Assembly (NCBI GenBank): GCA_044892525.1 | Contig: CM097885.1 | Coordinates: 23,934,001-23,998,000, forward strand | Length of the DNA stretch: 64,000 nt | Source of the DNA: Schmidtea polychroa | Taxonomy: Eukaryota | Direction: 5' to 3' | Shown here: piece after piece, positions 330 through 35,395 of the stretch | How positions within the stretch are numbered: position 1 is the first letter of the stretch | Layout: every line of letters begins with the position of its first letter | The notes under the pieces: generated by a model | The model's database searches: none | What the model was told of the DNA's origin: nothing | The model's input: the letters and a program-made list of their open reading frames with translations, nothing else | Position numbers and translations under genes: made by a program

Positions 330-1400
330 CGAAATCAAGAAACCTTATTTGAATAACCACCCAAAAGAATTGATTTAATAGGTACAAAGACAATCTTTCA
401 TGACAGCAGAAGCACATTATTCCCTGTGATTAGACAAAAGGATCAAACAATGAAACACTGGATAGAAACAACAGCATTACATTGAACAAATAATCGGTAA
501 CCGACCTCACAAATTGTCTATCTGAAGGTACAAAAGGATTACTTTCACTAGGACCAAAGTTCAGTATAAACAGAAAAATAGATGAAGCAGCCATCCTCAA
601 TTTCAAAACAGCTCTTTGTCGCATTGCGTACCAGATCAAATGGAACAATACAATATCTCATGAAAATGAAAATAGCGAAGAAAAGCTCCCAGTATACATA
701 AACGCAGATAAACTCTATCAACTAAATCCTGATGCAGAATTAGATTCAACACTCTCAAAGGTCTGTCACAAAATTATGGAGATAGTTGAGAAGGAAAAAA
801 GAAAACCATAACTCTCAAACCTATCGAAAGATGAACAAGCAATATTAAAATCCCTCGAAAAGAAACCATACGTTTACTTACCAAGTGACAAGGGGGAGAA
901 TTTTGCATTATAGAGAAGAATCGGTACTTTGAAGCTGGTTACGAACACCTCGGCAATATCGAAACATACAAGAAAGTCAGCCGCATGTCACCAAACAATA
1001 TCGAAATGAAGATCAACAAAGTATGGAAAGCCATAGCTTTGGAAATGAAGCTCAACAACAGAATAACCAACAGCTTCGTCACAAAAAATTCTGATCTTCC
1101 CAACTTCTACCACCTAATTAAAACTCACAAAGAGGATTCTGTTATCAAAAATAGGCCTATAGTGTTCAACAAAAATGGACCAACAACTAAAACAAGTTGG
1201 CTCCTTGCAAAGATCTTGAAACCTTTATTGGACCACACCATCTTTAAAGCAGCGACTGTCTCATGACAAGATTAAATAATAACAAAACTTCTCATAGAGA
1301 ATTCAAATACCCATTCAGTTTTGATGTCTTATCACTATACACATCTATCGAACCAAAAGAGGCTATTCAATGTTTAAAAAAGAAATTAAGAGAAAGAGCA
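330..1400 (+). pseudogene. Penelope-like retroelement, N-terminal/RT fragment, frameshifted
   Basis: Across frames: LLSLGPKF, YLPSDKG, LPNFYHLIKTHK..RPIV..GPT..SWLLAKILKPLL (ORF 985-1266), then FSFDVLSLYTSI (RT motif A). Confidence 0.8.
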
Positions 1401-1430
1401 ATTTCGATTGATTTAGTTTGAATTTTAATT

Positions 1431-1471
1431 CTACCTGAAGACCACAGTGATTTTGTCGAAATATATTGTAG
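1431..1471 (+). ncRNA. Minimal type I hammerhead ribozyme-like motif (Penelope pLTR type), degenerate
   Basis: CTAC-CTGAAGA-stem II-GAAA-TATATT-GTAG; stem I CTAC/GTAG, palindromic helix III ATATAT; stem II has mismatches. Confidence 0.65.
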
Positions 1472-1737
1472 TAAAATATATATATTAGATTTAGTGCTTT
1501 TCGTTATATCTAAATCAATGCCATTAAATAGTGATTGTTATAATAAATTTGAAAGTGACACTTTGTTTTTTTTGTATTACTCAATAGAAGCTCTTTGGAA
1601 TTGATGAAGAGATGTAGAATGTTAATGAAAGAATAACTATCAATGATTAAATTGGATATATGTGATAAAAATTATGAATTTAGTCTATTTCTGTTCTTGC
1701 TTAGAAGATGTTCAGATGTTGATTTTGAATTTCAATT

Positions 1738-1778
1738 CTTCCTGAAGATCACAGTGATTCTGTCGAAATATATTGTAG
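1738..1778 (+). ncRNA. Second hammerhead ribozyme-like motif, degenerate
   Basis: CTGAAGA-TC-ACAG tgatt CTGT-C-GAAA-TATATT-GTAG; near-copy of 1431-1471. Confidence 0.6.
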
Positions 1779-2244
1779 TAAAAAATACATAAATACAAGG
1801 AGCCCAAAAATTATTTCACGATTATAGAAGAGTTAGTTGATAAAATATTGGGACATGAATTAAACAAGGAAATATTAATAAATACTTGGAATTGTGACCT
1901 TATCTTTTAAATCTGATTAAAAACGATAATTTACAAGATGTTCTAGGAAATTCGAAAATGGTGACCAAATATATGATTTCTTTATAAAGAAGCTATTTCA
2001 GAACGATTACCATAAAGGATATGGTGTAGAGATATTCATTATAGAATGTGTTAATTATGAGGAAGAGAAAAGATTCTCAATGTTTTATCCAAAAATATTT
2101 TAAAAAAAAATTGAAATTAGTTTAAATAAAAAACTAAAGAAAAGATAAGTTTTTAGTGCTTAATTTATAAAATGAAATTTATGGAGTTATCTAATAATTT
2201 GCAAACCAATATTAATGTTTTAACGAATGAGAATCCTTATATAG

Positions 2245-4207
2245 CAACGGTGGGCAAATGCGGCTCTTAGAGCCGCATGCGGCTCATTGATAATTGAATT
2301 CTTGATAATCGAATTCGATTTTTTATTTTGAAATTTTTCACTAAATGTTTTGAGAAAAAATTTTTTGTTGCAATTGTATTTTCATAAATGTCAAAAAATA
2401 ACGAAACATTGTTTTTCACATTTTACTGCTTTTTAAAATTATTTTGTAGTAGGCGGCGCTTTGTTATAACAACGAGAGAGAAGCATCAAAAATAAATTTA
2501 GTGAATTTTGATTGGTTATTATTTTGTTTGTACAAGATTGCGGTCGTTTGTATATTTTAGTATAGTTTTCTATTCGTGTTTTTTGAAAAATTTGGTAAGA
2601 AGATTTTTTTATGAAGCATTTTAAAATTTTAAACTAACTAAATTAAATTAATGTCTTTTTATTATTTTGTTTAAATTTCAGCCATATAGTTATTTAAATT
2701 TATTATTATAATGACATCAGAAAACATCAAAAAACGAAAATACAGACAAGAAAATAGAACTTCTCAAGAAGAATGGACAGAAAAGTTTTTTTTATTGACA
2801 ATAATGGTAAATCGTTGTGTCTTATTTGTAAAGGTACAATTTCCAACTACAAAGTAACCAATTTACGTCGACACTATGAAGTAAGTCATCCACACTTATC
2901 AATTCAATATCCACTCAATTCAAACTTGCGGACAGAAAAACTTAAGTCATTGCAATCAGGGCTTCAAGCCCAACAAGGACTATTATCTACTTTTAGTCGA
3001 GAAGATGACAGTGCCAACGAAGCTAGTTTTTTGATAGCTTGGAATATAGCTCGTGCTAAACGTCCATATGGAGAAGGTGAATTTATTCAGAGAAACTTGG
3101 AAGAAGTGATTAAAGTTTTGGATCCGGACAACTCAAAACTACATAAATTGATCTCACGTATTCCTATTTCACGTCGTACAACTGAGCGTCGAATTGGCCA
3201 AATTAGCGAAAATGTTGAAAATAATTTGATGTGTGATTTAAAAAATTGTACAGCATTCAGTTTAGCTCTCGACGAGTCTACTGACATTCAGGATGTTCCA
3301 CAATTAGCCGTTTTTGTCCGCTTTGTATCTTCTGACGTAAAAGTGAAGGAAGAAATGTTAGACCTAGTAGCTCTTCTCGAAACAACTCGCGGTATCGATG
3401 TCAAAATTTAGTTTTGAAGCTAAACTTCGGCTTTTTGTGAACGATCTTAGGTCGAAAATATTTAATCATTTTCCACGAATAAAAGCTAATATAATTGATA
3501 TTACAGAAGAAAAAGTAAACGAATACAGTGAAAAATTGGAAGAATTGCAAGAATTGCAAGCGGATTTCAAATGTAGGTTTGAAGATTTGAAAAGTTATAA
3601 ATCTAAATTTGCATTTTTTGTGAACCCATTTATTTGTGATATTATTGAAGATGGATTTCCAATTTCTGAAGTAATACTTGTTAAAAAAGCGGTTGGGGAA
3701 TTGGAGTTATTAGATATGAAAGAGGACCAGGCTTTGCAAATGCACCATAAATCTACTTCTATAGTTGAATTTTGGAAACTCGTACCAGAGGCAAAATATC
3801 CACACTTAAAACAAGCTGTTTGCCGTCTAATTTCAATTTTTGGTACAACATATTGTTGTGAATCTTTGTACTCCACAATGAAGTTCGTAAAGTCGAAATA
3901 TCGTTCACAGTTGACCTATCAGCATCTTACAGAATTGCTGCGAACAGCTTTAACAAAGTATACACCAAATTTCAAAGATTTGACCAAAAGTCTTCGTTAA
4001 TTCAAGAAATTTTATTACTTTTTATTAATGGATTTTTATGTTTGTTACTTAATGTTTGAAATAATTATTTTGTTTTTTTTAATAGCGTTTAAGTCTCTTT
4101 AATCAAATTAATGAAATAAAAAAAAATATGTACTTTACTATGGTGGCTCTGTAAAAAATAAATTTTCGGAAAATGGCTCTTATTGAACCCATGCGTGCCC
4201 ACCCTTG
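2245..4207 (+). mobile_element. hAT DNA transposon (Buster/SPIN, GTF2IRD2-like), internally deleted
   Basis: 12-bp TIRs CAACGGTGGGCA / TGCCCACCCTTG (1 mismatch); 8-bp TSD TTATATAG at 2237-2244 and 4208-4215. Confidence 0.92.
2711..4000 (+). pseudogene. hAT transposase pseudogene
   Basis: ATG 2711 (MTSENIKKRK..EEW), frameshift in a T-run, CLIC..NLRRHY Zn finger, FSLALDESTD, then a jump to C-terminal FGTTYCCESLYSTMK..KSKYRSQL; the middle of the catalytic domain is missing. Confidence 0.88.
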
Positions 4208-4400
4208 TTATATAGTGTCAGCAGTTTACACCGATAAGATCACCAAAAGATTGTTGCCAAAGGTCGTTTGTTAAATTGATGACTCGGAGAAGTTCATTAG
4301 AAGATGCGAGATTTATTTCGATGATAAAGGTATAAAAAAGAAATAAAATGAACAGAAAAGATTCTCTGCATGCATGATTGACGAGGATCAATTGGAGAAG

Positions 4401-4848
4401 AAAAAGAAGAAGCAATATTTCTATCTTAATATCCCATTCATCAGTGACTTACTGGATTTCGAGATCTTTAAAGAACTTAAACGCATCGGTCGTTCGATTC
4501 AGATAGCACATAAATCTTGGACATTGAGTAAAACTCTGGCAAACAACACAAATAAAGAAAACAATTGCACAATGGAAAACTGCCAGACACCGAAAGATGT
4601 GTGCTTTAGAAAAAAACTATGTTTATTGCATCAAGTGCAATTTATGCAAGGAAATATACATTGTAAGTACACTCAGGAACTTGCACCAAAGAGTTAAAGA
4701 ACATCTAGATCCTGGTGGGAAATCTTCGGTGAACATACATCTCCAACATTGTCAACCAAAAAAAGAAAGAAAAAATATTTCAATCAAAATCGTAGCCAAT
4801 GGAAACAATCAAAAAAAGTGCTGGAACCTGACATTGTCGTCTGAATGA
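4401..4848 (+). pseudogene. Penelope-like GIY-YIG endonuclease fragment
   Basis: YLNIPFISD..; NYVYCIKCNLCKEIYIVSTLRNLHQRVKEH resembles the Penelope VY..C..C..YIG.T.R.L..R..EH pattern; frameshifted. Confidence 0.8.
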
Positions 4849-5047
4849 AAGACGAAATAATCATAAGAGATATTATGAGGAAGTTTTATGATGAAGAAAT
4901 TTTTAAATATAAAATTTTAAAAATAAAATTTTAGATTAATTTTTAAAAAAATAATAAAAAGATATTTTAATTAAAAATATCTTCGTAGAAAATTTTTTTA
5001 AATAAGAAAGTTTAAAGAAGATACTGATATTTACTGAAATAAAATTT

Positions 5048-5398
5048 ATGGAAACAAACACTGATTTTAATGTTTTACAGGATGAACATCCTAATATGGT
5101 GGCAGCGGTAAACACTGACGCAATCACCGAAAGATTGCTACCAAAGGTATTCTGCCAAGGTGACGACTTGGAAAAGTTCATTAAAAGATGCGAAATTTAT
5201 TTCGACGCCAAGGGAATCACGCAGAAGAAAGATCATGAAAGATTAACATCTTGCATGATTGATGAGGATCTCCTGGAAGTGTACGCCAAAACACTGAAAA
5301 AAGCCGAAGGATTCCAGGCTAGGTTGCGATTGGCATTCGATCGCGAAACAGATGTTTTAAAGGATCTACTTTGTTTTTGCACATTTTTCTTTAATTAA
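5048..5398 (+). pseudogene. gag-like N-terminal ORF, 3'-truncated (probable LTR retrotransposon origin)
   Basis: LLPKVFCQGDDLEKFIKRCEIYFDAKGI; ~9 related copies in the window; loses homology to the longer copy after DVLKD. Confidence 0.5.
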
Positions 5399-6646
5399 TA
5401 TCTCAATTACTCCACAATGACCTTCCTGATAAATATTCGTTATTTCAAACATCAATGGTTATTTTACATCATAACCCGAATAGAATTTCATTAAACTCTG
5501 TTACAAAAATATTTTCCTTCCATTTCTGGTATTTTCTGTTATATTCTCTTTGTCATTCAATGTAAAACATTCAGAACTGAACTCGAAATCTTTTCTGAAT
5601 CAAAACATTTATTTGGTTTTTGGATTAGTTTATATATTATATAATTTAGATAAATTTAAACAAATTAATTATTAACTTAAATGATATTCAAATTTATAAT
5701 ATTTTCCAAAAAAATATATAAAATTTATAAAGTTTAAAAATAAATTGTAAAAAAATTTTATTCTTTTGAAATATTTGGTCGCAAATATCAGAATATGACA
5801 AATTTTGTTTTTTTAAAATATATTTTTATACTAAATTCACTTTTTCTTATTTATAATACAACACCAATTATATCTAAATTACTAATAAATTATTTTTTAA
5901 ACGCTTTATTAAACTTAATATTAAATATGTATTTAATAATTTATAGCATAAGCAAAATAAATAATTTTAAATGACTATTAAAATAAAAATAATAATATTT
6001 TACAATTTAAAAATTATTATTTATTTTAAATAATATTTAATTTTATTGATATATATTTTAAATAAATTATCATTTTAAAATTCTTTGACTTAAACGACGA
6101 GTGTTCATTAAAAATATTTTTTTACAAAGTTTATTTCAATACAAATTTAATAAATTATTTTAAAATCTTTATATATTTCAAATTTTAAAAATATTGAAAA
6201 ATATATTGTTCGATTTTAAAAATTTATATATAATTTTTTTCTGATTTCAGGTGTCTTTAAAAAAATTAACAATTACAACTTTCAACATGTTATATGAAAA
6301 ATTGTATTTTAAAATACGGAAATGTTTAAACATGCTTTACACAAACTTTAATTTAAAGCTTCACAAACTCGTTAAATATTAAATTGTATTCTCAAGTTAT
6401 AAAAATTTATCTAATTCCCCAAAATATTAATTTCAAATTTTCATTACAATAACCTATAAACGGCATTCATTGGCTTTCCTAATTTATATTTTAAAATATT
6501 TATATTAAATAAAAAAGAAAATAAGTCAATTAAATACACATGATTAATCATTTAAAATTTCTGTTAATATTAAAATTAATAAAAAGCGCAATTGACTGGA
6601 TTTTATTTAATGTCCATTTAGTCATTATCAATTGCGCTTTGGTTTA

Positions 6647-7540
6647 CACCAAACACCACTGAGAACCGTTTCCTATAATATAACAAAAAAATCAATAATC
6701 TTACATTATAGAAACATACATACTTACTTTGATTTCACGCTGATGTTCTAATTTATAGCTCAGTGAGATACATCTTATATTATAGAAAACTGTAAAGTGG
6801 AAGGAAAATTAAAAACTGCACACAAACGCAACACATACTAAAAAGCACATACAAATTTTTGATTCGTATAAATGTAACGATGAGATACGTTTCTATAATA
6901 AACTTTATTTTTGACAATTTTTAGAAAAAAAAGATCGTTGAAAATTTTTAAAATTATATTTTTAATGAAAATATTAAGAGCAGATGAATTTGGTTCAATA
7001 TCATTTCAATCCAGATTTGATTTCCTGAAAGAAGCTCCTCATATTGAGCTCAGAAAAAAAATTACAAAAATTATTTTAATCATCGATTTTCCCCAAAATG
7101 TTTTAAAAAAATAAATATTTTAGGTGATTGATTTATTTATTTCATTAACTATAATTAAAAATATATCGGACTCACATTTTTTTGAAATAATTCTAAAATA
7201 AATAGAGCTAAATATCATAAAATTCCTAGAAACCCTGAAAATTAATTAAAATAATATATAATTATACTGTTGATTAAAAGTAATATTTAAGAACTTGAAT
7301 AATGATCTCATATCTCATATGGATCAGAATTCAAGTCTTAAAATTTACTTTAAATAGAAAAAATTACTTGAAAGCCATTTGTAAAATGGCTAAAATAAAT
7401 TTCCAAAATATATAAATGAGACATGATAAATTGATAAAGATGATTTACAATTACAACCAATTACAATTGGTAAATAAATTGGTGAGTGAATTTACACGCC
7501 AACCACCACTATAGAGAACGTATCTCTGTGGTGTTTGGTG
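6647..7540. mobile_element. MITE / non-autonomous TIR element with TA flanks
   Basis: TA-CACCAAACACCACTGAGA...TCTCTGTGGTGTTTGGTG-TA; imperfect TIR of ~30 bp; no convincing ORF. Confidence 0.7.
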
Positions 7541-8317
7541 TATATGTGCTGTATTTGTGTGTTAATTTTATTTTTCTACCACTTTCTCACCTTCTATATA
7601 AATGATTTTATTCATTAAAACATTAAAATTTAAAGCGCAGGTAAGTTTGTGTGTTTCCATAATACAGTCAGTCTATTGAATTTCTTTGTATAATATAACT
7701 TCTTATATATTGAAAGTAAATAAAAGAAAGAATTTTAAATTTATTATGACAAAGTTTGAATAATTGCAAGCTGTTGAGAAATGAAATTTTTTATGAAATA
7801 ATTTTGTAAGATAATTTTAAATAGAAAGTTTTATGAAATAATTTTCAAAGGCAAAATTTAATACAAATTTTTATTAAATTAATTTCAAAGATCGATTTCA
7901 ATTAATTTCTTCTACTAAAAATATTAGTAAACAAGGGTTATATTTGGTAAATAAGTAAATGAAGGGCTAAATTTTAAAAACTAGTAATAAACTTTAAAAG
8001 ATAATGAGAATAATTTAATTTTAAGTAAATTAAGAGTCTAAAAATTGATCAAATTAAATTATGGGCTTTTATTTTTAAAAAAAAGTAATTATTGTTCAAA
8101 GATTTTAAAAATTTAAGTAATATTTTTAAATTAAGTAAAATAAATAAAAATTTTAAATTAAAGTAAATTTTTAAATAAGTTAATTAAAGTAATAATTTTA
8201 ATTTTATAATCAAAAAGTTTGAATGATAGGCAGCTTTTGAGAAATGAAAATCTTTAATGAAAGTTTTTATGAAATAATTTTTAAAGAAAATTTAGATGCA
8301 AATTTCGCAAGTAATAA

Positions 8318-8318
8318 T

Positions 8319-8383
<65 letters not shown>
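8318..8383. repeat. (AAT)n microsatellite; shorter in the copies near 28780, 49170 and 63500
   Basis: Directly visible. Confidence 0.95.
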
Positions 8384-8384
<1 letters not shown>

Positions 8385-8569
8385 TCAATCAAATACTTAA
8401 CAACTAAAGACTTTATTAACAACACATAAAAAATAACTATAATAATAAATAAAAATTAACAAGACAGTGATAAAGATACGAAATTTATTCATCACCAAAT
8501 ATTTGCTTATAAGAAGCTTTTCCTAATTCAGGAAGAAGAATATTTCTTAAATTCTTGTCAAAATCTAAA

Positions 8570-8905
8570 ATTCAACCAGATACCTACAACCAAAATACTA
8601 ACAAATATGTACTATCTAGGTATTATTTACATTCAGATAATAAATACCAACTATCAGCTGCTAAGGATTTTTAACTAGGTACTAACAAATAAGTACCAAA
8701 TACTTACAACTAAGAACTTACAACCAGATAGCTGCTACCATGTATTAACAACCAACAAACAACTAGCTACTAACAGATTAGTTTCAAAGATTATTTACTA
8801 ACAATCAACAACAACCAACTAACTAGGTACCAGATACCAAATACTAAGTAACTCTCAAAAAACCAGATACTAAAGACTTACAACCAGGTATTTACAATCA
8901 ACTAA
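8570..8905. repeat. Degenerate CA-rich minisatellite, ~14-bp period (ACAACCAGATACCT-like)
   Basis: Recurring caaccagatac/caactaag/aactaggtac words; also near 29000, 49400 and 63730. Confidence 0.6.
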
Positions 8906-10124
8906 ATATTCTTCATTGTATTTTATCAAATGCTTTTTAAATAAATTAACCTTTTATATGTATTAAATTCAAAAATATATTTAATTACAATCAGTAGAAA
9001 AACATTTTCTGTCTAAGTCTAAATTTAACAAAAATATTGATTTTCGTCAAAAATGAATAATTATCAACTCAAACACTTTAAAACACTACGTGAAATTGAA
9101 AATAATTCAAATATTTTAAAATAACAACGAAAGACTATAGAATTTTAATTTTTATTCACAAAAGATCTGCTCAACTTTTAATTGATTACTAATATTCGTA
9201 CTGCCTTAAAACATTTATTAATGAAATGTAATAAGATTATATTAATTAAAAATAGTCAATAATTTGCAATTTGTCATTAATCAGTTGTTGAAATCTAATT
9301 TTATGTTAACATGAAGAAAAAATCTTTGCCTATTTCACAAAGTAATTATAGCCTCTTGACATGAGTAAACTTTCTAATTAGGAATTCATTAGCAAGTCAT
9401 CTATATAGAGAAGAAGGCTTTCTACATTCATTCAATAACAGACAAATGTGAAATATAAACAGTAATATTAAATATAATAATGAATATTGGAACTCCATGT
9501 CGATGCCAATGCTGACACTTTACCTAAAAGACAATGACTTATCGATGACTCATCGTTTAAATGTGGGTACTGTTTTATTTTTTTGCACATCCCCCTTTCT
9601 GTATGACTCATCGATGACTTATTCTTTTTAGAACAAAGACAATGCATCATTTATTTTTAGAACAAAGACTCGTCAAACGATTCATCATCTATTTTTTAGA
9701 ACAGACTCATAAAACAGGACTCCACTAGAACAAAGATCTTATTACTATTATTATTATTATTATTATTAATATTATTGTTATTATTACTATTATTATTATT
9801 ATTTTCAAAATATTATTTAAAACAATAAAGTGATAATTTAAACCTTTAGCTGTAAATAATGTATTTAATGAAAAAACATTTTCGACTATAAGATAGTCTT
9901 TGTCAATCTCCTGGAACTTTGCAATCTTCTTCCCGAAAATACATTTCTTTCTTTCTTTTATTTCCTTTTTCTTAATTCTCATTGAGAATTAATTCTTATT
10001 GAGACCAATTACTGAGTTATTCTAAAATATATTTAAAATTATCTAGAAATATATTTAAAAATTATCTAACAATATATTTAAAATTATCTAACAATATAAA
10101 TTTTTTCAATGACATTTTTACATG

Positions 10125-10560
10125 AAAATTAAGGTCTAAAATTTTCAATTTGTAAATTAATGGTTTAATTTTAAATTAAAGTAAATTTAAAAAAGTCTAT
10201 ATTTTTAAACTTAAATAAATTAAGGATAAATAAGCAAATTAAGGTCTAATATTTTCAATTAAATTAAATTAAGGGTCTAAATTTTTATATTGAATTAATC
10301 AAGGATCAAAAATTAAACTAAAGTAAATTAATGATAAATAGGTTAATTATGGTCGAAAATTTTAAATTAAGTTCTAAATTTTTAAACTTAAGTAAATTAA
10401 GGGTTCAAATTAGTAATTTAAGGACCAAATTTTAAAATTAAGTAAATTAAAATAAATAGGTGAATTAAGGTTAAGTTTTAAATTAAAGTAATTTAGTTCA
10501 AAATTTTAAATTAAAGTAAATTAATGTAAAATTTTAAATTAAATTAATAATTTATTGTCA
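10125..10560. repeat. Degenerate AT-rich tandem repeat (TAAGTAAATTAAGGTCTAAAATTTTAAAT-like)
   Basis: Repeated aagtaaattaagg / aaattttaaatt words; also in B' and B''. Confidence 0.6.
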
Positions 10561-11772
10561 GATATTTTGAATAACTATCATCTGATGAGAAATAAAAATT
10601 TAAAATGAAAACTTTTATAAAATATTTTTCTATGACAATTTTATATAAATATTTTTATGAATAAATTTTAGATGGAAATAATGTAAATTAAGGGATACAT
10701 TTTTAAAGAAGAGATATATATAAAAAAAGTAATTAAATGCTAAAATTTAAAATTAAGAAAATTAAAGGATTTAATTTTAAATTAAGTAATAAATTTTGAA
10801 AAATGATGAGAATTAGTAGTAATAATTAAAGAAAATTATGACTAAGTTAATTAGATTTAAAGAACACTACAGTGTTAATTCTAACCATTTTACAATAATA
10901 TTTTATATCAAAGTTCATATCTTGATTTAGTTAATTTTAATTGAATGTAATGACAAATTCCAGCGTGTTGTCTTCAATTTTAATGAATTATTTTGAAAGA
11001 TTATTTAGATAAATTTTGGTGTCTATTCATTAGTAATTTTTTTAGAGTTGATGGTTTTTGAGGATTTTTATCCTTTTCGTGAATTTCATGTGGATTGAAT
11101 GAATATTTAAAAATTTAAAGTTAGTTCTAAGATAAATTTAATTAATTTCTTGATAATTGGATGCATTTTTATTGATTGATTTTTAATTTTAAATAAAAAT
11201 TATTTTTAATGACAGTTAGGTTAATTATCAAGTGATAGGATATGACTTTGTAATGTAATTGAATTTGACTAAGTAGTTTTTTGTATATTTTCTAAGAATT
11301 TCATGTTGATTGATTAAATATTTAAAGTTTTAATGGTGATTTTAATTGAATTTCTTGATAATTTGCTAAATTTTAAAAAAAAATTAATTTTTTTAATGAC
11401 TGTTAGGTTAATAATCAAGTAATAGGTTTAATTTTAGATGACTTTGTATTGCACTTGACTCAATAATCTTTTCTATACTTTTCTATGAATATTTTCATTT
11501 ACACATTGATGAACTTTTAAAAATACATAAGCTAAGAAACCAGTTAACTTTATCAAGGACTTCAAATTTACTTGAAAATTATTGTAAGATATACTGAAAT
11601 TTGTGATTTAGTTTGCTATTATGATCAATCAATATATATCATCTCTAGGTAGGTATTTGATGGGTGAAATATTTGTCGGAAATAATGAGTATATTATGTC
11701 TTTGTTATATAAATCGACTTTAGCGTCAAAATGGATTTTTAAAATAAATTTAAATTTTAAAATACCGCAACG

Positions 11773-11775
<3 letters not shown>

Positions 11776-11842
<67 letters not shown>
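11776..11842. repeat. (AT)n microsatellite, variable length between copies
   Basis: Directly visible; shorter at ~32213 and ~54255. Confidence 0.95.
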
Positions 11843-11848
<6 letters not shown>

Positions 11849-12486
11849 TTTTCCTACCTTTCCTTGATTTTGATTGGTTAGAATTTGTTACTGTTTATTA
11901 TCTTCAGTCTATAAACAATAATCTATCATTAGTCACATTTTACAATAATTTAACTTTAAAAATGAATTCTTTAATAGAAAACGTTATGAATGTCCGAGAA
12001 AAAAATTCAGAAATTTGGTAAATTTTAATTTATTGATTAATTAAATAATTTATTTAGTTACATAATATTAATGAAGACAATTTGAAATCGAAGATTAAAG
12101 GAAATTTGAAAAGAAAAAGTAAACATAATTTTTAATTTATTGATTTAATTAATTGATAATTTAGGTAATACGAATGAAGAGAAAAATTATGTCAATAAAT
12201 CGAAATAAAAATTTACAATGTAAGTATTGATTCCTTTTTATAATTTAAAGGAAATTTAATATAATTTTTTATTTAAGTAAATGTTAATATTTTTAATTTA
12301 GTAAATTTTTATTTTTTAGTAAATAAAATTTTGAAAATATTCATTGTAATAAATAATAATGATTTGCAAATTTTTGCGTAAACATTTATTAAAATATATC
12401 ATTTAAATTATAATATTTTTTTATTAAATTTTTATTTTATAGGTATACTTTACCCGAATTGAGATATCTTTTATTAAATAAAATTT

Positions 12487-12948
12487 ATGGAATTATTTAG
12501 TGATTTAAAAACGGATGAAAATCCTGATATGGTGGCAGCGGTAAACACCGACGCGATTAACGAAAGATTATTGCCAAAAGTGTTCTGTCAAGGTGATGAC
12601 TTGGAAAAATTCATCAGAAGATCCAAGATCTAATTCGATGCTAAAGGCATCAATAAAAAAGAACAAGAAAGATTCACCGCATGCATGATCGACGAGGATC
12701 TATTGGAGAAATATGCGAAAACAGTTAAAAATGCAGAAGGATTTCAAGCCAGGTTACGAATGGCATTTGATTACGAAAGGGACGTAATAAAGGATATGGA
12801 AAGTTTATTGAATTATAAAAGAAGAGGCGAAGAGATTGAAACATATTTTAAAAAAGTGTAGGACCTTGTTGACAGGTTGTTTGAGAATAAAGAATTCACC
12901 AAAGAGAAAATAACAGCAAAGATGTTGATAGTATGTGCTGAGAATTTT
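12487..12948 (+). pseudogene. gag-like ORF, longer variant with in-frame stops
   Basis: MELFSDLKTDENPDMVAAVNTDAINERLLPKVFCQGDDLEKFIRRSKI*FDAKG..IETYFKKV*DLVDRLF. Confidence 0.55.
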
Positions 12949-14135
12949 CCTCGAGTAAGATTAATTAAAGAATTTTAAAATAATAAATAAAAAAATAAAA
13001 CAAACTAAAGAAAATTTAATTACATAAATTTATGTAAAATTATAATAATTTATCATTTAATTACTTTCAAAATCTTTTTTTGTCAATACATTACATAGAT
13101 TCCTATGATAATCAACACTATAAACGAAATTATAAGGAAAATACATTTCCATGAGGTCAGTACAGCTATTCCAGCCCTATTTTTCACAAATATGAAACTG
13201 TCCAAATTCAAATAAAATTTAAATCAGAAGAAAATAGTTTAACATATTTGAAAAAACAGCGAAATAATTTCGAATTTATTATTACAATTATTACAAGTAG
13301 TGTGGTTATATACCCAACCAAAACAGCCCCCCAACAAAAACATGCCTCCAAATCACTTAAGCTATTAGAAAAACAACCTAAAACTTATACTTTTATAGTA
13401 TTTTAACCCTATATTTTGAAAACAACCACCCTTAATGACTCTAACTGTTTTAATCTTTAAAGCCTCAAACTCAAAAGCTTTAAACTAAAAAGAGAATAGA
13501 AAAGAAAATGGCATTATGAAAAAGTTAGAGGGCTATTTGATCTTTATCAGATTATTGATTTTAAATTATATAAATTAAAAAATAAATGAAAAATAGTAAA
13601 ACTGCTCTGAGGGGACAGTGGTATTTTTTTTTTTTTTTTTCACTGTCCCCTCAACAGTTTTTTTTGATCCGGATCATTTTTTTTATTTATCAACCTCTTT
13701 CGTTTATCAAATCTCTTCTAATATACAAGCTGGCTAGACTCATACATCAGAATCAATCCGATAATAGCAGCACGCCTTATTATTCGCTTCTCGCTCACGA
13801 AGTCGATTTCAACGGCGTTTTAAGCGTGCTGCTCGAAAGTAAAAATGAATTCGAAAAGAATCCGAAAGAGGTCCGAAAACAACTGAGAAATAAATGTGCA
13901 CATTACCGGGATCGATCCGGGGGTGTTCGAAAGACAGGTGGCGATAATTACCGGTTCGCCACCATCACCCGTTTCAATATTTTTTTTTTCATATTTATGT
14001 TTAAAAAATAAAATAATAAATAAAATAAATAAAATAAAATAAAATAAAATAAAAATAAATAAAATAAAATATAAATATCAGATACCCACACTATTTTCAA
14101 TATTATTTTCAAATTTTTAATATTATTTTATGTTG

Positions 14136-14218
14136 AAAAAAAAACTAACCTCAGATGTGATTTGAACCGCTATCCATTTGAACCACGGTGCCGGTCTAGC
14201 CCACTGCGCTATCTAGGA
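14136..14218 (-). ncRNA. tRNA-like Pol III unit 1
   Basis: Minus strand: A-box TAGCGCAGTGG, B-box GGTTCAAATC, downstream T9. Confidence 0.5.
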
Positions 14219-14465
14219 TTGGATTTTTGTCATTTTTTAGACTATAAATAATCGATTCAAGTTCTTTAACTCTTTCCTGTAATTGTTTCATTTTCTTCAA
14301 TCTTATATCAGCAACATCTACAGCCTTCATATAAAAATGTCGATACTTTTCATTATCTACCCTCAACTCTTTGATGTATTCTAATGGTTCTTCTTCTCTT
14401 CTTTTCATTCTCTTATGTTTAACTTCATTCAATTCATTTCTCATTCTTTCTTTTAACTCATCCAT
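14196..14465 (-). CDS. Polinton small charged coiled-coil protein (89 aa)
   Basis: Intact ORF, identical in both copies, E/K/R-rich. Confidence 0.55.
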   Translation of the reverse strand: MDELKERMRNELNEVKHKRMKRREEEPLEYIKELRVDNEKYRHFYMKAVDVADIRLKKMKQLQERVKELESIIYSLKNDKNPILDSAVG

Positions 14466-14626
14466 TTTTATAAATATTTTTTTATTGGATATATTAATTT
14501 TTGGTAGCTTAAGTTAAAACGTTTTTGATCTTAAATTTCCAGGAGTTGCCGTTGACCAATCTCCTTAAAAATTTGTACAAGTACTAAATCGAGTATGCTG
14601 ATCAATATTTCGTTAAAAAGAATTTG

Positions 14627-14707
14627 AAAAAAAATGACCGAAATGGGATTTGAACCCATTGGTATTGGCAATGCAGTCGAGTGCTATTACCACTAAGCTA
14701 TACTCAA
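14627..14707 (-). ncRNA. tRNA-like (tRNA-Cys-like 5' half) Pol III unit 2
   Basis: Minus strand GTATAGCTTAGTGGTAATAGCACTCGACTGCA..AATGGG TTCAAAT CCCATT..T8; D-arm and T-arm pair, acceptor and anticodon stems do not. Confidence 0.6.
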
Positions 14708-14860
14708 TATAAAATAAGTTGTTAATGTGTGACTATTTATTGATGAAATTAATAATTAATTATTCATTTTCTCGACAACTACCACTCAGATCCATCTGAA
14801 AATTTAAATATATACTAAAATCAGTACGCTGAATCAGATTCCGTTGAAAAAAAAATATCG

Positions 14861-14942
14861 AAAAAAATTGACCAAAATCGAAAATTAAACCCGGTACTCC
14901 CGGTGATAAAATTGAAGCCTATTCCCAATCCGCTATAATGGC
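14861..14942 (-). ncRNA. tRNA-like Pol III unit 3, degenerate
   Basis: A-box-like TAGCGGATTGG, weak B-box GGTTTAATT, T7; flank similar to unit 2. Confidence 0.35.
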
Positions 14943-14998
14943 TTACATAATATATTTAATTAATCCTATTGTGTGTGTGTAAATTTTAATATATAAAA

Positions 14999-16285
14999 AT
15001 GAATAATATAAAAATTCAAGAAATAAATTAATTAAATCTTGATTATAATAAAGAATTTACTCATGAAATCAAGAAAAACGATGTACTTAAAATCTCCCCA
15101 ACTTCAGGATCTATTGCAAACTTAAATCGTAGGGGTGATATAGTTTTTCAATCTCTTCAAACATCAAACCCTATAGATATTTGTAATGCCAAATTATATT
15201 ATAAAATCGAATTAGAAATTGAAGCAAACAAAGATATAACCCTAGAAAATAATTTCTTTCCAAATTTATTCTCCAACATGAGATTAAAACTAGGATCATC
15301 AGAAATTGAAACTGTTTTGCATCCGGGAGTATATTCTACAATGTTAAATTTTATTTTGACTGGTTGTGATTATAAAAATGAATATGGTGAATTAACAGGT
15401 TGGATTCCTGATGTTAATAAAGGGGATTTAGATAAAGATGGTTTAGATGTAAACCATGGTTACTATAAAAGAGCTGAACTTTATAAATCTAAAAAATTTG
15501 AAGGTTATTTTGAATTAAAACACTTGTTTGGATTCATTCAAAACTATAATCGTATACTTCATAATGTTTTTATAGAATTAGTTTGTAATAGAGTAGAAGG
15601 TGATAAAAAATTGTTCTATGGAGATAAGGATACAACAGCTAAATTAAAAATATCAACACTTGAATTGCATATACCTGAATGGACATTAAATCCACATTCT
15701 GAGATTAAACTCCTTGAAAGATTAAATTCCAACAAGTCTATAAATGTAAATTATTTAAATAGAATCTGTAGTGAATTTAGTATGACAGAGGGTTCAACAT
15801 ATTCTATAAAGGTAGCAAATTTAGCATACCGACCAAGATATATCTTGATTGGATTCAAAGAAGTAGATTCATCTTTCCAAAAAAATAACAACTTGTTTAT
15901 TCAAAAGATTGGAGTTGATAATTTAAAAACAATCCAAATTCAATTAAATAGTTCTTATTATCCAATAAATAGAATGGAATTTAATATTGAAAATAATGAA
16001 AACATATTCCCATATCTAAATTATATTGAAACATGTTATGATTTCAAAGTTGAACCGCAATTAAGTTTAGAAGATTTCAAAAATTTATATTCTATATTTT
16101 GAATAAATGTTTCAGACCAAGATGATCGCCTAGCCATAAATAATGTTGATGTTACACTTCATGTAACAAAGGATTCTAATTTTAAAGCTAAAGTATATAC
16201 ATTAATATTAGAAGAAAAGAAAATAGAAATGAAATTATATGGTGGAAAGATTTCAATAATCGAAAATGTTAGGGGAGATTCTTGA
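14999..16285 (+). pseudogene. Polinton major capsid protein (double jelly-roll type), ~428 codons with two in-frame stops
   Basis: One frame from ATG 14999; TAA at codon 11 and TGA at 16100; motifs ENNFFPNLF, LKHLFGF, RPRYILIGF, IQLNSSYYP, YSIF*INVSDQ. Confidence 0.8.
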
Positions 16286-16315
16286 TATAATCCCTGATAT
16301 TTTTAACATTTTAAA

Positions 16316-17659
16316 ATGTCTCTCTATTGGAGATGTGAAAGTTGTAATTGTCAAGTTACAAGACATCATAAAGCAAGTCATCTAAAAACTAAAAAACATA
16401 TAGGAGGCGATCTACAATCTTCAAAAGTGACATCTTCAATATTAAAACCTTTTACTACAGAAAAATATCCAGGTGAAAGACATTTATTTAAACACAACTA
16501 TACCGGACCAGGAACAAGATTAGATTTTAGATTAGATGAAAATAATAATCCCAAACAAGGAGAAGAACCAATAAATAGAATTGATCAAGCAGCTTTAAAA
16601 CATGATATTGCATACAATTCAGAAGATCTTAGAGATAGACATGTTGCAGATGTTAATTTAATACATGATTTAAATAGTATCCAAAATCCATCAACCCAAA
16701 AAAAGATTCAAAGAGCTCTAGTTAAATTAGCAATGAAAGGTAAGATTTTCATAGGTGCTAGTTTACCAAGGATGGCAAAAGATGTTGCTAATAAAAAGAT
16801 TATTGAACAAGCAGATGCTGAAAGATCCCTCGAGAATATATCCAAGACTAGTTTATTAACCCCAACAGAATCACAAATAAAATATGCCAACGAATTACAC
16901 CATGAATTTAGAAAAAATAAAAAATATTTAAAAGTTCAAGTACATGAAAAAGATCAAACATGGTCTGCAGATTTAGTCTTTATGCCAACCAAATCATCAG
17001 ACCCTGAAAAATATAAAATAATTTTAACAGTAATAGATTTATATACAAGATTTGCCTTTGCAAGGTGTTTAGAAAATAAAACAGGATATTCTATTACAGA
17101 AGCATTTGAAAATATATTTGAACAACATCAAAGAATTCCAAAATATTTATGGTGTGATAAAGGAACAGAATTTTATAACAAAGTTTTACAAAGTTTTTAA
17201 ATGAAAATGATATTAAATTATATTCAACAGAAAACAGTCGTAGTTGAAAGATTAAATAGAACATTAAAAAATAAAATGTGGAAATATTTTACGGCTATTG
17301 GAAAACAAAAATGGAACAATGAATTGTTACAAAAGATTGTAAATGAATATAATAATGATGTACATAGTTCTATAAAATCAACACCTTTAAATGCTACCAT
17401 AAATCCTGAAACCATTAAAGTAGTAAATATTGAAAATGATGTTATTGAAAAACCAAAGTTTAAAATTGGTGACCGAGTAAGAATATTTAAATATAAAAAT
17501 AAATTTGAAAAAGGATTCACAGCAAAATGGACAAATGAAATTTTTATTATAAATAAAATAAATTATACAACTCCAATAACATATAGCATCATTGATTTAA
17601 ATAATGAAAAAATATTAGGTAGATTTTATAATAATGAGTTACAGAAAACAGATTTCTAA
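16316..17659 (+). pseudogene. Zn-finger + parvovirus-type PLA2 + retroviral-like integrase fusion, disrupted near 17195-17235
   Basis: CESC..HLKTKKH; HNYTGPGT..IDQAALKHDIAY; WSADL, VIDLYTRF, WCDKGTEF, VVERLNRTLK, KFKIGDRVRI..FEKGF..W. Confidence 0.9.
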
Positions 17660-18444
17660 AATAATTTTTTCCATATTTCAGCTTCTTCTCTATCCAAATA
17701 AATATAATTATATTTTTCTCTCCAATGATTATCAACAAACATATCAAACATATTCTTATCAGGTTCAACATTTGAAAATAAATCATTATAAATCATATTC
17801 TTATCACGGCGATCTAATTTAAAAAATATAAAACAATTAGAATTATTTCTTATAGAGTTTTTATCTAAAGCATAATAAGTTTGAGATATATAAATAACAT
17901 TACAATTATTATGTCTTCCTCTTGTAAAGTAACTCTTTTGAATCTCTTGATTTTTCATATTAACAACATCATCAAATATAACTAGATTCTTTTTATCTTT
18001 AGGAAGTAAATCACAATGTAAAACATCTTCAGGTTTATTAGAGAATAAAACTTGAATCCCCTGCCCCTCTTCACAAATATAATCATTTTTATTACTAATA
18101 TCTGATTCTAAAATCTTTTCCTTATACCAATCAACCATATCACAAGGTTGAAAAACTTCTTCAGGACATCTATGTTGATTTTTAAAAATATCAATTATTG
18201 CTTTTTTAGTTAATTTATTTTCAAAGCCACATTTCAAAAGTTGTAATTCTGGTTGATTTATAGTTGTAGAATAAAAGATTAAATTATTATAATCTAAAAA
18301 ACCATCTTCAAGCAACATTTTCAAAACAAGTACATTCTTTCCACATCCAGAAGAACCAACAATTAATAATCTAAAATTATCAGGAAATACTTTATTATTA
18401 AATTTAGATTTATGTCTATTTAAAATTGGTTTCCAAATATCCAT
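17656..18444 (-). CDS. Polinton packaging ATPase (A32/FtsK-like)
   Basis: Walker A GSSGCGKN, Walker B LVIFDD, FTRGRHNN, YISQ. Confidence 0.9.
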   Translation of the reverse strand: MDIWKPILNRHKSKFNNKVFPDNFRLLIVGSSGCGKNVLVLKMLLEDGFLDYNNLIFYSTTINQPELQLLKCGFENKLTKKAIIDIFKNQHRCPEEVFQPCDMVDWYKEKILESDISNKNDYICEEGQGIQVLFSNKPEDVLHCDLLPKDKKNLVIFDDVVNMKNQEIQKSYFTRGRHNNCNVIYISQTYYALDKNSIRNNSNCFIFFKLDRRDKNMIYNDLFSNVEPDKNMFDMFVDNHWREKYNYIYLDREEAEIWKKLF

Positions 18445-33360: not shown

Positions 33361-34547
33361 TTCCTCGAGTAAGATTAATTAAAGAATTTTAAAATAATAA
33401 ATAAAAAAATAAAACAAACTAAAGAAAATTTAATTACATAAATTTATGTAAAATTATAATAATTTATCATTTAATTACTTTCAAAATCTTTTTTTGTCAA
33501 TACATTACATAGATTCCTATGATAATCAACACTATAAACGAAATTATAAGGAAAATACATTTCCATGAGGTCAGTACAGCTATTCCAGCCCTATTTTTCA
33601 CAAATATGAAACTGTCCAAATTCAAATAAAATTTAAATCAGAAGAAAATAGTTTAACATATTTGAAAAAACAGCGAAATAATTTCGAATTTATTATTACA
33701 ATTATTACAAGTAGTGTGGTTATATACCCAACCAAAACAGCCCCCCAACAAAAACATGCCTCCAAATCACTTAAGCTATTAGAAAAACAACGTAAAACTT
33801 ATACTTTTATAGTATTTTAACCCTATATTTTGAAAACAACCACCCTTAATGACTCTAACTGTTTTAATCTTTAAAGCCTCAAACTCAAAAGCTTTAAACT
33901 AAAAAGAGAATAGAAAAGAAAATGGCATTATGAAAAAGTTAGAGGGCTATTTGATCTTTATCAGATTATTGATTTTAAATTATATAAATTAAAAAATAAA
34001 TGAAAAATAGTAAAACTGCTCTGAGGGGACAGTGGTATTTTTTTTTTTTTTTTTTTCACTGTCCCCTCAACAGTTTTTTTTGATCCGGATCATTTTTTTT
34101 ATTTATCAACCTCTTTCGTTTATCAAATCTCTTCTAATATACAAGCTGGCCAGACTCATACATCAGAATCAATCCGATAATAGCAGCACGCCTTATTATT
34201 CGCTTCTCGCTCACGAAGTCGATTTCAACGGCGTTTTAAGCGTGCTGCTCGAAAGTACAAATGAATTCGAAAGCGAATCCGAAAGAGGTCCGAAAACAAC
34301 TGAGAAATAAATGTGCACATTACCGGGATCGATCCGGGGGTGTTCGAAAGACAGGTGGCGATAATTACCGGTTCGCCACCATCACCCGTTTCAATATTTT
34401 TTTTTTCATATTTATGTTTAAAAAATAAAATAATAAATAAAATAAATAAAATAAAATAAAATAAAAATAAATAAAATAAAATATAAATATCAGATACCCA
34501 CACTATTTTCAATATTATTTTCAAATTTATAATATTATTTTATGTTG

Positions 34548-34630
34548 AAAAAAAAACTTACCTCAGATGTGATTTGAACCGCTATCCATTTGAACCACGG
34601 TGCCGGTCTAGCCCACTGCGCTATCTAGGA
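34548..34630 (-). ncRNA. tRNA-like Pol III unit 1 (copy 2)
   Basis: Same A-box, B-box and T-run as copy 1. Confidence 0.5.
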
Positions 34631-34877
34631 TTGGATTTTTGTCATTTTTTAGACTATAAATAATCGATTCAAGTTCTTTAACTCTTTCCTGTAATTGTTT
34701 CATTTTCTTCAATCTTATATCAGCAACATCTACAGCCTTCATATAAAAATGTCGATACTTTTCATTATCTACCCTCAACTCTTTGATGTATTCTAATGGT
34801 TCTTCTTCTCTTCTTTTCATTCTCTTATGTTTAACTTCATTCAATTCATTTCTCATTCTTTCTTTTAACTCATCCAT
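34608..34877 (-). CDS. Small coiled-coil protein (copy 2)
   Basis: Identical to 14196-14465. Confidence 0.55.
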   Translation of the reverse strand: MDELKERMRNELNEVKHKRMKRREEEPLEYIKELRVDNEKYRHFYMKAVDVADIRLKKMKQLQERVKELESIIYSLKNDKNPILDSAVG

Positions 34878-35038
34878 TTTTATAAATATTTTTTTATTGG
34901 ATATATTAATTTTTGGTAGCTTAAGTTAAAACGTTTTTGATCTTAAATTTCCAGGAGTTGCCGTTGACCAATCTCCTTAAAAATTTGTACAAGTACTAAA
35001 TCGAGTATGCTGATCAATATTTCGTTAAAAAGAATTTG

Positions 35039-35119
35039 AAAAAAAATGACCGAAATGGGATTTGAACCCATTGGTATTGGCAATGCAGTCGAGTGCTATT
35101 ACCACTAAGCTATACTCAA
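35039..35119 (-). ncRNA. tRNA-like Pol III unit 2 (copy 2)
   Basis: Identical to 14627-14707. Confidence 0.6.
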
Positions 35120-35395
35120 TATAAAATAAGTTGTTAATGTGTGACTATTTATTGATGAAATTAATAATTAATTATTCATTTTCTCGACAACTACCACTCA
35201 GATCCATCTGAAAATTTAAATATATACTAAAATCAGTACGCTGAATCAGATTCCGTTGAAAAAAAATATCGAAAAAAATTGACCAAAATCGAAAATTAAA
35301 AAAAATTAATTGAAGCCTATTCTAATCCGCTATAATGGCTTACATAATATATTTAATTAATCCTATTGTGTGTGTGTAAATTTTAATATATAAAA

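Follow-up and report, generated by a model that had tools for sequence, protein, structure and literature searches.

The window (the whole stretch of 64,000 nucleotides analysed here) belongs to a 781-Mb, AT-rich host genome assembled in four large contigs, and carries a truncated element of the Polinton/Maverick (adintovirus) type. Its genes include a double jelly-roll major capsid gene (14999..16102, plus strand; PF21738), an rve integrase whose reading frame also holds a PLA2-like domain, a gene for the A32 ATPase and a partial PolB gene; the Pfam matches of these core genes further comprise PF04665, PF00665 and PF03175. The element begins at 13296, beyond which the flanking DNA of other copies diverges, with a left terminal inverted repeat (TIR; 13296..14239) of ~940 bp that starts with AGTAG and is matched by the far-side ends of other copies. 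Among 15 opposed pairs of ends, 12 show an identical 6-bp target-site duplication (one sequence being common to two of these pairs), one shows agreement at 5/6 positions, and in two the terminus was not found. In the long TIRs opening with AG and the 6-bp target-site duplication, as well as in the capsid, A32 ATPase, rve integrase, PolB and PLA2-like domain, the element agrees with the alpha-class adintovirus/Polinton (PLA2X type), from which it differs in the in-frame placement of the PLA2-like domain. The window copy is dead: the capsid gene is broken by in-frame stops at 15029 and 16100, and the far end has been lost. Together with its surroundings it forms a 20.4-kb unit whose tandem duplicate is 98.7% identical and is accompanied by an incomplete third unit (window 6741-51529); a second copy of the entire end region occupies 33710..35390. 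Capsid searches of the genome gave about 3,200 candidates at first look. At L247:1880-7800 there is another, distant Polinton-like gene set, which has no translated match to the window element; the window itself also contains, at 2773-4000 and 52615-53601, a hAT-type transposase that is split and a transposase of Tc1/mariner type.

The initial annotation described three minus-strand units, each with an A-box, a B-box and an oligo-T run, and read them as possible analogues of adenoviral VA RNAs. All three are present where they had been placed, in divergent orientation to the capsid gene: unit 1 (14136..14222; A-box 14211-14201, B-box 14168-14159, T9 14144-14136), unit 2 (14627..14710; A-box 14700-14690, B-box 14656-14647, T8 14634-14627) and unit 3 (14861..14945; A-box 14935-14925, B-box-like element 14891-14882, T7 14867-14861). 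A scan of 13296-15000 tolerating at most one mismatch per box recovered three units, and the same criterion applied to 1,000 dinucleotide shuffles of this region gave a mean of 0.015 units and a maximum of one. The units recovered are unit 1, unit 2 and a fourth, overlooked unit, u0, a candidate Pol III RNA gene of ~375 nt (13589..13972, minus strand) that lies 170 bases outside the flagged span; unit 3 is missed in the window copy owing to two private changes. Also overlooked were the location of u0 and unit 1 within the TIR and the derivation of units 2 and 3 from the ribosomal DNA (rDNA) spacer. The flagged units are hence not one set, with units 2 and 3 being captured spacer and unit 1 a promoter-only unit. 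That they are not tRNAs is borne out: ARAGORN finds no tRNA gene in the window, unit 2, which does resemble tRNA-Cys with unpaired acceptor and anticodon stems, reaches only 26.7 bits in Rfam (cut-off 29), and no Rfam tRNA match is listed for u0 or unit 1. No dispersed SINE was encountered either, as 30/30 loci for each of three motifs lie in a Polinton context, these loci being the first places on contig 1 rather than a random or genome-wide sample.

Units 2 and 3 lie within a piece of host rDNA intergenic spacer (14501..14987). The rDNA was located by means of 5.8S, and three repeats were compared, in two of which 28S and 18S were placed by Rfam. The piece matches 3/3 spacers as sub-repeats between 28S and 18S at 91-94% including indels, and the unit-3 block, which is carried by 27 of 30 loci, is about 98-100% identical to the spacer in these (144/146 positions in the window copy). 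Polinton copies devoid of the piece show a clean empty site, with the two boundaries joined at a six-base AATTTT overlap, and the spacer sequence runs on beyond both sides of the 14501-14987 match. The empty site and the continuation of the spacer on both sides together point to the rDNA spacer as the likely donor, and we regard the origin of units 2 and 3 from it as nearly certain; the capture by the Polinton is recent. Unit 2, with its D-arm remnant, 6-bp T-arm and T8, aligns with host tRNA-Cys at a score of 53 (shuffle maximum 29-30) and descends from tRNA-Cys via the spacer. As a counter-point, the window unit 2 is nearer to tRNA-Cys than most spacer copies, and one of the three spacers has the same 27-mer. 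The weak B-box reported for unit 3 is real in the window copy, where both boxes are damaged, but it is partly a lesion of that copy, because 29/29 other best-matching loci carry TAGCGGAGTGG and GGTTCAATTT as unit 3 boxes. Unit 3 is also partly deleted in the duplicated copy, as had been noted.

The host spacer itself (L253:7400-8460; also L255 and L257) contains 4-5 tRNA-like units with A-box and B-box, arrayed in tandem at ~243-bp spacing, antisense to the rRNA and variable in copy number. This array consists of 2-3 unit-2-like sub-repeats of 243 bp, one unit-3-like unit and one further unit; a literature search for tRNA-like Pol III sub-repeats in rDNA spacers found no description of such an arrangement. 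Long tandem arrays are likewise formed by host tRNA genes (L114-L151), with periods of 281 bp for Cys, 424 bp for Lys and multiples of 278 bp for Arg, and the host tRNA-Cys motif has 1,001 matches.

The distribution of the captured piece is patchy. The exact unit 2 motif has 1,333 genome matches, and in one set of loci (L152-L181) unit 2 was found at 7/13 capsid-side ends, 0/11 far ends and 4/6 unassigned ends. Among 30 loci picked by their capsid, 24 have u0 without units 2 and 3, two have all units and four have none. For the boxes of units 2 and 3, selection was considered and rejected, since their conservation in Polinton copies is not clearly above that of the surrounding flanks, and unit 3 folds no better than shuffled sequences. 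Units 2 and 3 are probably passengers, or extra Pol III sites beside the capsid promoter. A more general version of this view holds that all the units are passengers that were captured from host Pol III genes, some long ago and others recently, and then spread by nothing but hitch-hiking with one successful lineage. It is correct as to the origin of units 2 and 3, it agrees with their absence from 24/26 capsid-picked loci with u0 and with the undistinguished conservation of their boxes, and it would also accommodate the sister lineages devoid of the cassette described below. However, no host source was found for u0 or unit 1, for each of which 30/30 loci lie in TIRs; their derivation from the rDNA spacer was dismissed, as the resemblance to the three spacers is limited to the boxes.

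Unit 1, the inner of the two TIR units, comprises an A-box, a duplicated B-box-like core, a B-box and T9. Its motif has 3,219 genome matches, with 30/30 first loci inside a TIR, and in some copies it is tandemly doubled at ~233 bp. Across 90 TIRs the B-box has a variability of 0.002, compared to 0.132 in the leader, 0.077 in the middle, 0.123 in the tail and 0.013 in the adjacent spacer; the value of 0.052 for the A-box mostly reflects TAGC versus TGGC, both of which are consensus. For the leader, middle and tail (14144-14222) there are several alleles differing at multiple bases, which are combined in a mosaic fashion, the variability being about ten times that of the adjacent spacer. Unit 1 folds no better than shuffled sequences, and a terminal stem was rejected because its leader-tail pairing is no better than that of shuffled pairings (86/500, in a set that included unit-2 rows). 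In some copies an 89-codon ORF (14196..14465, minus strand) overlaps the unit 1 leader and A-box with its last codons; it has no match in Pfam, and one contig of run X1 (see below) spans 14184-14495 and thereby covers it.

These patterns suggest that unit 1 is probably kept for the binding of its boxes rather than for an RNA, and a TFIIIC-bound site, the second idea of the initial annotation, would fit it better than an RNA role. tRNA genes can have barrier activity, and the whole cassette might be kept for occupancy of the DNA by Pol III or TFIIIC, with outward-pointing units at the two ends forming chromatin barriers or holding open the promoters on the capsid side and the polymerase side, and with any RNAs being by-products. 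Besides the kept boxes and the variable, fold-less remainder of unit 1, this proposal draws on the variable number of units among copies, their recurrence at ~233-250 bp and the insertion of a second source of boxes, the rDNA spacer, which sits immediately upstream of the capsid start with its units oriented alike. Such a chromatin-barrier role is the best reading for unit 1 and the main rival for the cassette, for which we nevertheless rate it as rather unlikely, since it accounts neither for the conserved and strand-specific RNA structure that extends for some 300 nt past the u0 B-box nor for the contig depth over u0.

The start of u0 is placed ~10 nt upstream of its A-box (~13970), and its end at T4 (13601-13598) or T5 (13593-13589). 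The head (13909..13961, minus strand) contains an A-box (13961-13951), an 8-bp hairpin and a B-box (13918-13909), and is tRNA-Asp-like: of the five host tRNA types compared with the units (Asp, Gly, Cys, Lys and Arg), tRNA-Asp aligns with it at a score of 38, a value exceeded in 0/1,000 shuffles (maximum 33). The B-box has an A at the T54 position, and the T-stem is broken in many copies. Downstream on the same strand lie a long G·U-rich hairpin (13704..13764) of pre-miRNA size (61 nt), with 25 pairs, a 7-nt loop and a tandem G·A, a second hairpin (13765..13836) with a G-C, G·U and A-U series at one pair, and a 3' terminal hairpin (13598..13665; folding z -10.4), the loop of which is oligo(A) of about 9-27 A and which precedes the T-runs. 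A 19-mer motif of u0 occurs in 2,804 exact copies in the genome, often as opposed pairs 13-16 kb apart. These opposed pairs, the match of the far ends and the target-site duplications indicate that u0 and unit 1 are present in both TIRs and point outwards. Parts of the u0 structure are missing from 5/90 TIRs, and u0 as a whole from 1/30 loci.

From its A-box u0 extends over about 350-370 nt, with one T4 inside the body in 82/89 copies (13879-13876 in the window copy) and no T5 in 86/89. The internal T5 of the window copy (13845-13841) is private to it (0/90 other TIRs) and is lacking in the duplicated copy; expression only from copies free of such a T5 is thereby ruled out as an explanation. 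The scarcity of T5 in the body was also discarded as a sign of selection, as 67% of shuffles are equally free of it. Given the internal T4 in 82/89 copies, and a host tRNA-Cys gene followed by only T3 and T4 runs, a product of ~100 nt may dominate over the full-length RNA. Judged by the features of viral Pol III RNAs with type-2 promoters, u0 combines an A-box and a B-box with a terminal oligo-T run, the B-box showing one deviation and the body one internal T4, and it has a conserved secondary structure, a feature that is not found in units 1 and 3. The idea of a VA-like RNA encoded by the element therefore survives in a changed form: the Polinton carries a good candidate in u0, whereas the flagged three do not qualify, because units 2 and 3 are captured spacer missing from many copies and units 1 and 3 are devoid of a fold.

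The tRNA-derived SINEs and the rodent BC1 RNA also combine a tRNA-derived head bearing A and B boxes with an unrelated body and an A-rich stretch. In contrast to these, no dispersed copies of u0 were found outside Polinton ends, and its A-tracts are internal and followed by a hairpin and T-run. By analogy to BC1 and the EBERs, u0 might be a Pol III RNA that acts on translation or as a scaffold, not via Dicer, using its oligo(A) loop and A-tracts or a zinc-finger protein of the element. The tRNA-derived head, the internal A-tracts and the presence of an oligo(A) loop, variable in length, in 58/58 aligned copies speak for this proposal, as does an ORF beside the far-end TIR (L160:1834-3018, L170:3-1187) that begins with a matrin/JAZ-type C2H2 finger scoring above the Pfam cut-off, this finger class including dsRNA binders. 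However, the first A-tract has just 3 A in 19/90 TIRs, such fingers are common, and RNA binding by this one is putative, so that we consider a scaffold function improbable. The integrase ORF at window 16316 begins with a motif that looks similar to this type of finger.

The u0 span folds at -138 kcal/mol, with a z-score of -9.58. For comparative analysis we used an alignment of 58/85 distinct copies, chosen by hand; some copies that have large deletions, and many of the partner ends, did not enter it. In the RNAalifold structure of 81 pairs obtained from it, 99.4% of 4,680 cells are paired, versus 43-48% when the partners are slid, and over all 90 TIRs the corresponding value is 99.35% of 7,179 cells. 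Compensatory pairs were seen at 2/81 positions, a count not above that of shuffles (426/500); the cells with double changes are more numerous than in all 500 shuffles. One compensatory pair, 338-385 in the 3' hairpin, is GC in 30, AU in 21, GU in 3 and unpaired in 4 of the 58 copies, and pair 155-206 of alignment A2, in the second hairpin, is AU in 28, GU in 21, GC in 6 and unpaired in 3 (n=58). In the 90 TIRs, pairing is kept by 10/12 variants common to at least four copies and by 10/41 rare variants (Fisher p 0.0004), a test that is partly circular, as the structure was derived from the same copies. A cleaner test is offered by the 27 opposed positions of the main hairpin, where G·U occurs at 9 sites and A·C at none. 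This hairpin is predicted to fold at -25.1 kcal/mol (z -5.05) as minus-strand RNA, compared to -3.0 as plus-strand RNA and -4.5 and -0.1 as DNA; by these calculations it folds only as minus-strand RNA, which is the strand of the boxes.

The body of u0 has a variability of 0.017-0.023, about four times less than the 0.091 of the outer TIR, and the outer TIR has been swapped between sub-lineages while u0 was retained; the conservation of the head is partly by construction, as loci were chosen by a motif in the head. The retention of u0 while the outer TIR was replaced, and the pairing kept by common variants, are at odds with a mere passenger status, which together with the missing host source for u0 and unit 1 makes that explanation quite improbable for the cassette as a whole. 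Taken together, these observations suggest that u0 is likely a Pol III RNA whose fold is under selection.

Additional evidence comes from assembled contigs of sequencing runs over the TIR. Those compared were X1, X2, X7, X8 and X10, which we guess to be RNA, and X3, which is genome-sized and appears DNA-like; in all of these, contig depth cannot rank parts of the region or give a start, end or strand. Contigs of four of the probable RNA runs cover the u0 span, with the depth being far above that of the flanks in three. At 13658-13963 the depth is 4,157-6,183 in X1 and 1,140-17,699 in X2, against 45-165 and 16-127, respectively, in the outer TIR, which amounts to a roughly 10- to 1,000-fold difference. 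X7 has a depth of 61-65 at 13658-13861 and 0-30 elsewhere, X8 contributes one 294-nt contig (13624-13905), and X10 has no contig over the region. Depth in the DNA-like X3 varies by no more than about 5-fold, apart from a skipped repeat (13978-14077), which for this reason cannot reveal a gap in coverage. In X1 the predicted terminator marks a fall in depth from 797 to 22, and over the head the depth goes from 9,319 to 0 (0 at 13930-13981). The contigs of X2 extend to 13957-13964, slightly short of the predicted start of u0. In two studies, X1 and X8, the contigs stop near 13915, within the B-box, whereas those of X2 do not, which is no more than a weak hint. The X2 depth peaks just upstream of the minus-strand A-run, where four contigs carry a loose T10, the shape expected of oligo-dT priming on a minus-strand RNA; a preferential origin of the RNA from alleles with long A-runs was dropped as inseparable from such primer effects. 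Over unit 1 the depth is 300-2,000 in X1 and X2, with contigs extending past its T9, and over units 2 and 3 it is 2-12, a low value that is uninformative because short RNAs are lost in such libraries. The contigs thus lend indirect support to a discrete minus-strand RNA from the u0 span.

It might alternatively be supposed that the hairpins are structures of the TIR DNA used in replication, or that a longer Pol II transcript is polyadenylated near 13670 and the contigs reflect its 3' end. The location of the hairpins in the TIR agrees with the former, although the main hairpin does not fold as DNA. The latter could point to an AATAAA preceding the minus-strand A-run in the window copy (13689-13684) and to the contigs that run past the T9 of unit 1, but the X1 depth is already 0 at 13930-13981, ahead of the skipped repeat, and over unit 1 it is about 20-fold lower than over u0. 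Both options consequently appear very improbable.

The initial annotation proposed to look for syntenic boxes in related full-length Polintons. They are seen in TIRs of the same family, but not in the sister lineages: four capsid-picked loci with about 92% capsid identity have no units, and their ends instead consist of short self-inverted cassettes of 230-330 bp with no convincing boxes. Such terminal units (L243, L244, L245, L264-L266) have an AGTAGT terminus at each of their own two ends, the two termini facing each other. The sister lineages appear to be rare, as a pattern for three sister termini has at least 23 genome matches (with one sister type outside the pattern), compared to the 2,804 u0 motifs. 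Given that sisters with about 92% capsid identity do without it, the cassette is not needed by Polintons in general. On this single comparison, which does not speak to cause, the lineage that underwent expansion either gained the cassette or kept it. Capsid relatives at 72% identity were also recovered from other species (P0002 and P0003). A search of viral contigs yielded neither a capsid relative nor a match to the u0 motif, and 23 metagenome loci with 25-53% capsid identity have no units, the five longer ones being without a terminus and hence uninformative on TIRs.

Several viral systems offer parallels to the layout of u0. Adenoviruses, which are kin of Polintons, and Epstein-Barr virus produce the VA RNAI/II and EBER1/2, respectively; as Pol III transcripts of dsDNA viruses, these RNAs are both abundant and highly structured. 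The best-known target of the VA RNAs, PKR, is a vertebrate protein. These RNAs measure ~160 nt in the case of VA, whereas u0 is ~375 nt long and has a tRNA-Asp-like head. The VA RNAs are described as Dicer substrates able to compromise miRNA biogenesis (PMC4378190). In the TMERs (tRNA-miRNA-encoded RNAs) of murine gammaherpesvirus 68, a type-2 Pol III promoter within a tRNA-like 5' part is followed by hairpins and oligo-U (PMC8223928, PMC4378190). With these u0 shares a tRNA-like head with type-2 boxes, hairpins and oligo-U, and one of its own hairpins is of pre-miRNA size; it differs in being longer, in its A-tracts, in having no predicted acceptor stem for tRNase Z and in its location in the TIR with two copies per element, and any miRNA from it is hypothetical. 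Bovine leukaemia virus and the foamy-virus LTRs provide Pol III pre-miRNA units of integrated elements, which in simian foamy virus are located in the terminal repeats (PMC4378190). Those retroviral units are single hairpins, whereas units 1 and 3 form none and u0 has several helices. The layout of u0 would thus work like that of the TMERs and the VA and EBER RNAs, with homology to none of them, and a search of Rfam with u0 found no family reaching its cut-off, including VA RNA and EBER.

Sequences of tRNA type have been reported on other midsize linear dsDNA elements, in that the tRNA genes of Polinton-like viruses and MELD viruses, called by Rfam or ARAGORN, were read as codon compensation (PMC12220804, PMC8502044). 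None of the four units described here passes either of these programs. The main text of PMC8502044 has no mention of VA RNA or polymerase III. A literature search confined to the texts of papers brought up no account of a Pol III RNA in an animal Polinton, and one using six u0 hairpin motifs gave only an unrelated match.

On the basis of these lines of evidence, we assign a probability of about 0.5 to the reading that u0, present in both TIRs, is a Pol III RNA that serves as a dsRNA decoy or small-RNA precursor, alongside promoter-only units. In the proposed mechanism, TFIIIC would bind the A and B boxes of the units, and host Pol III would start near 13970, pass the T4 at 13879-13876 and stop at 13601-13589. 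The 61-nt G·U-rich hairpin might then be handled by Dicer, either as a competitor or as a source of miRNA, and this engagement of Dicer could ease the silencing of the element. Unit 1 would be the element's own promoter-only unit, with units 2 and 3 representing rDNA spacer inserted on the capsid side. The part of this proposal that concerns the small-RNA pathway, taken by itself, is possible but leans towards the doubtful. It is further conceivable, though unlikely, that the Polinton evolved a TIR-borne VA/TMER-like Pol III RNA against small-RNA silencing, that this led to its roughly hundred-fold expansion, and that it is still gathering Pol III promoters, the latest of them from the rDNA spacer.

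In the planarian studied in PMC8532177, Polintons are reported among the main piRNA targets; if the present host is a planarian, such targeting would supply a motive for a counter-measure against silencing. With regard to the initial annotation, the present results amount to a correction, in that host rDNA spacer makes up two of its three units, and this spacer carries an array of tRNA-like Pol III units of its own. The about 2,800 copies of u0 and the signal in existing, probable RNA data make it directly testable. Adenoviruses, herpesviruses and some retroviruses are known to make non-coding Pol III RNAs. If u0 is such an RNA, Polintons would possess a counter-defence at the RNA level like true viruses, which would bear both on the extent to which Polintons behave as viruses and on the origin of VA-type RNAs.
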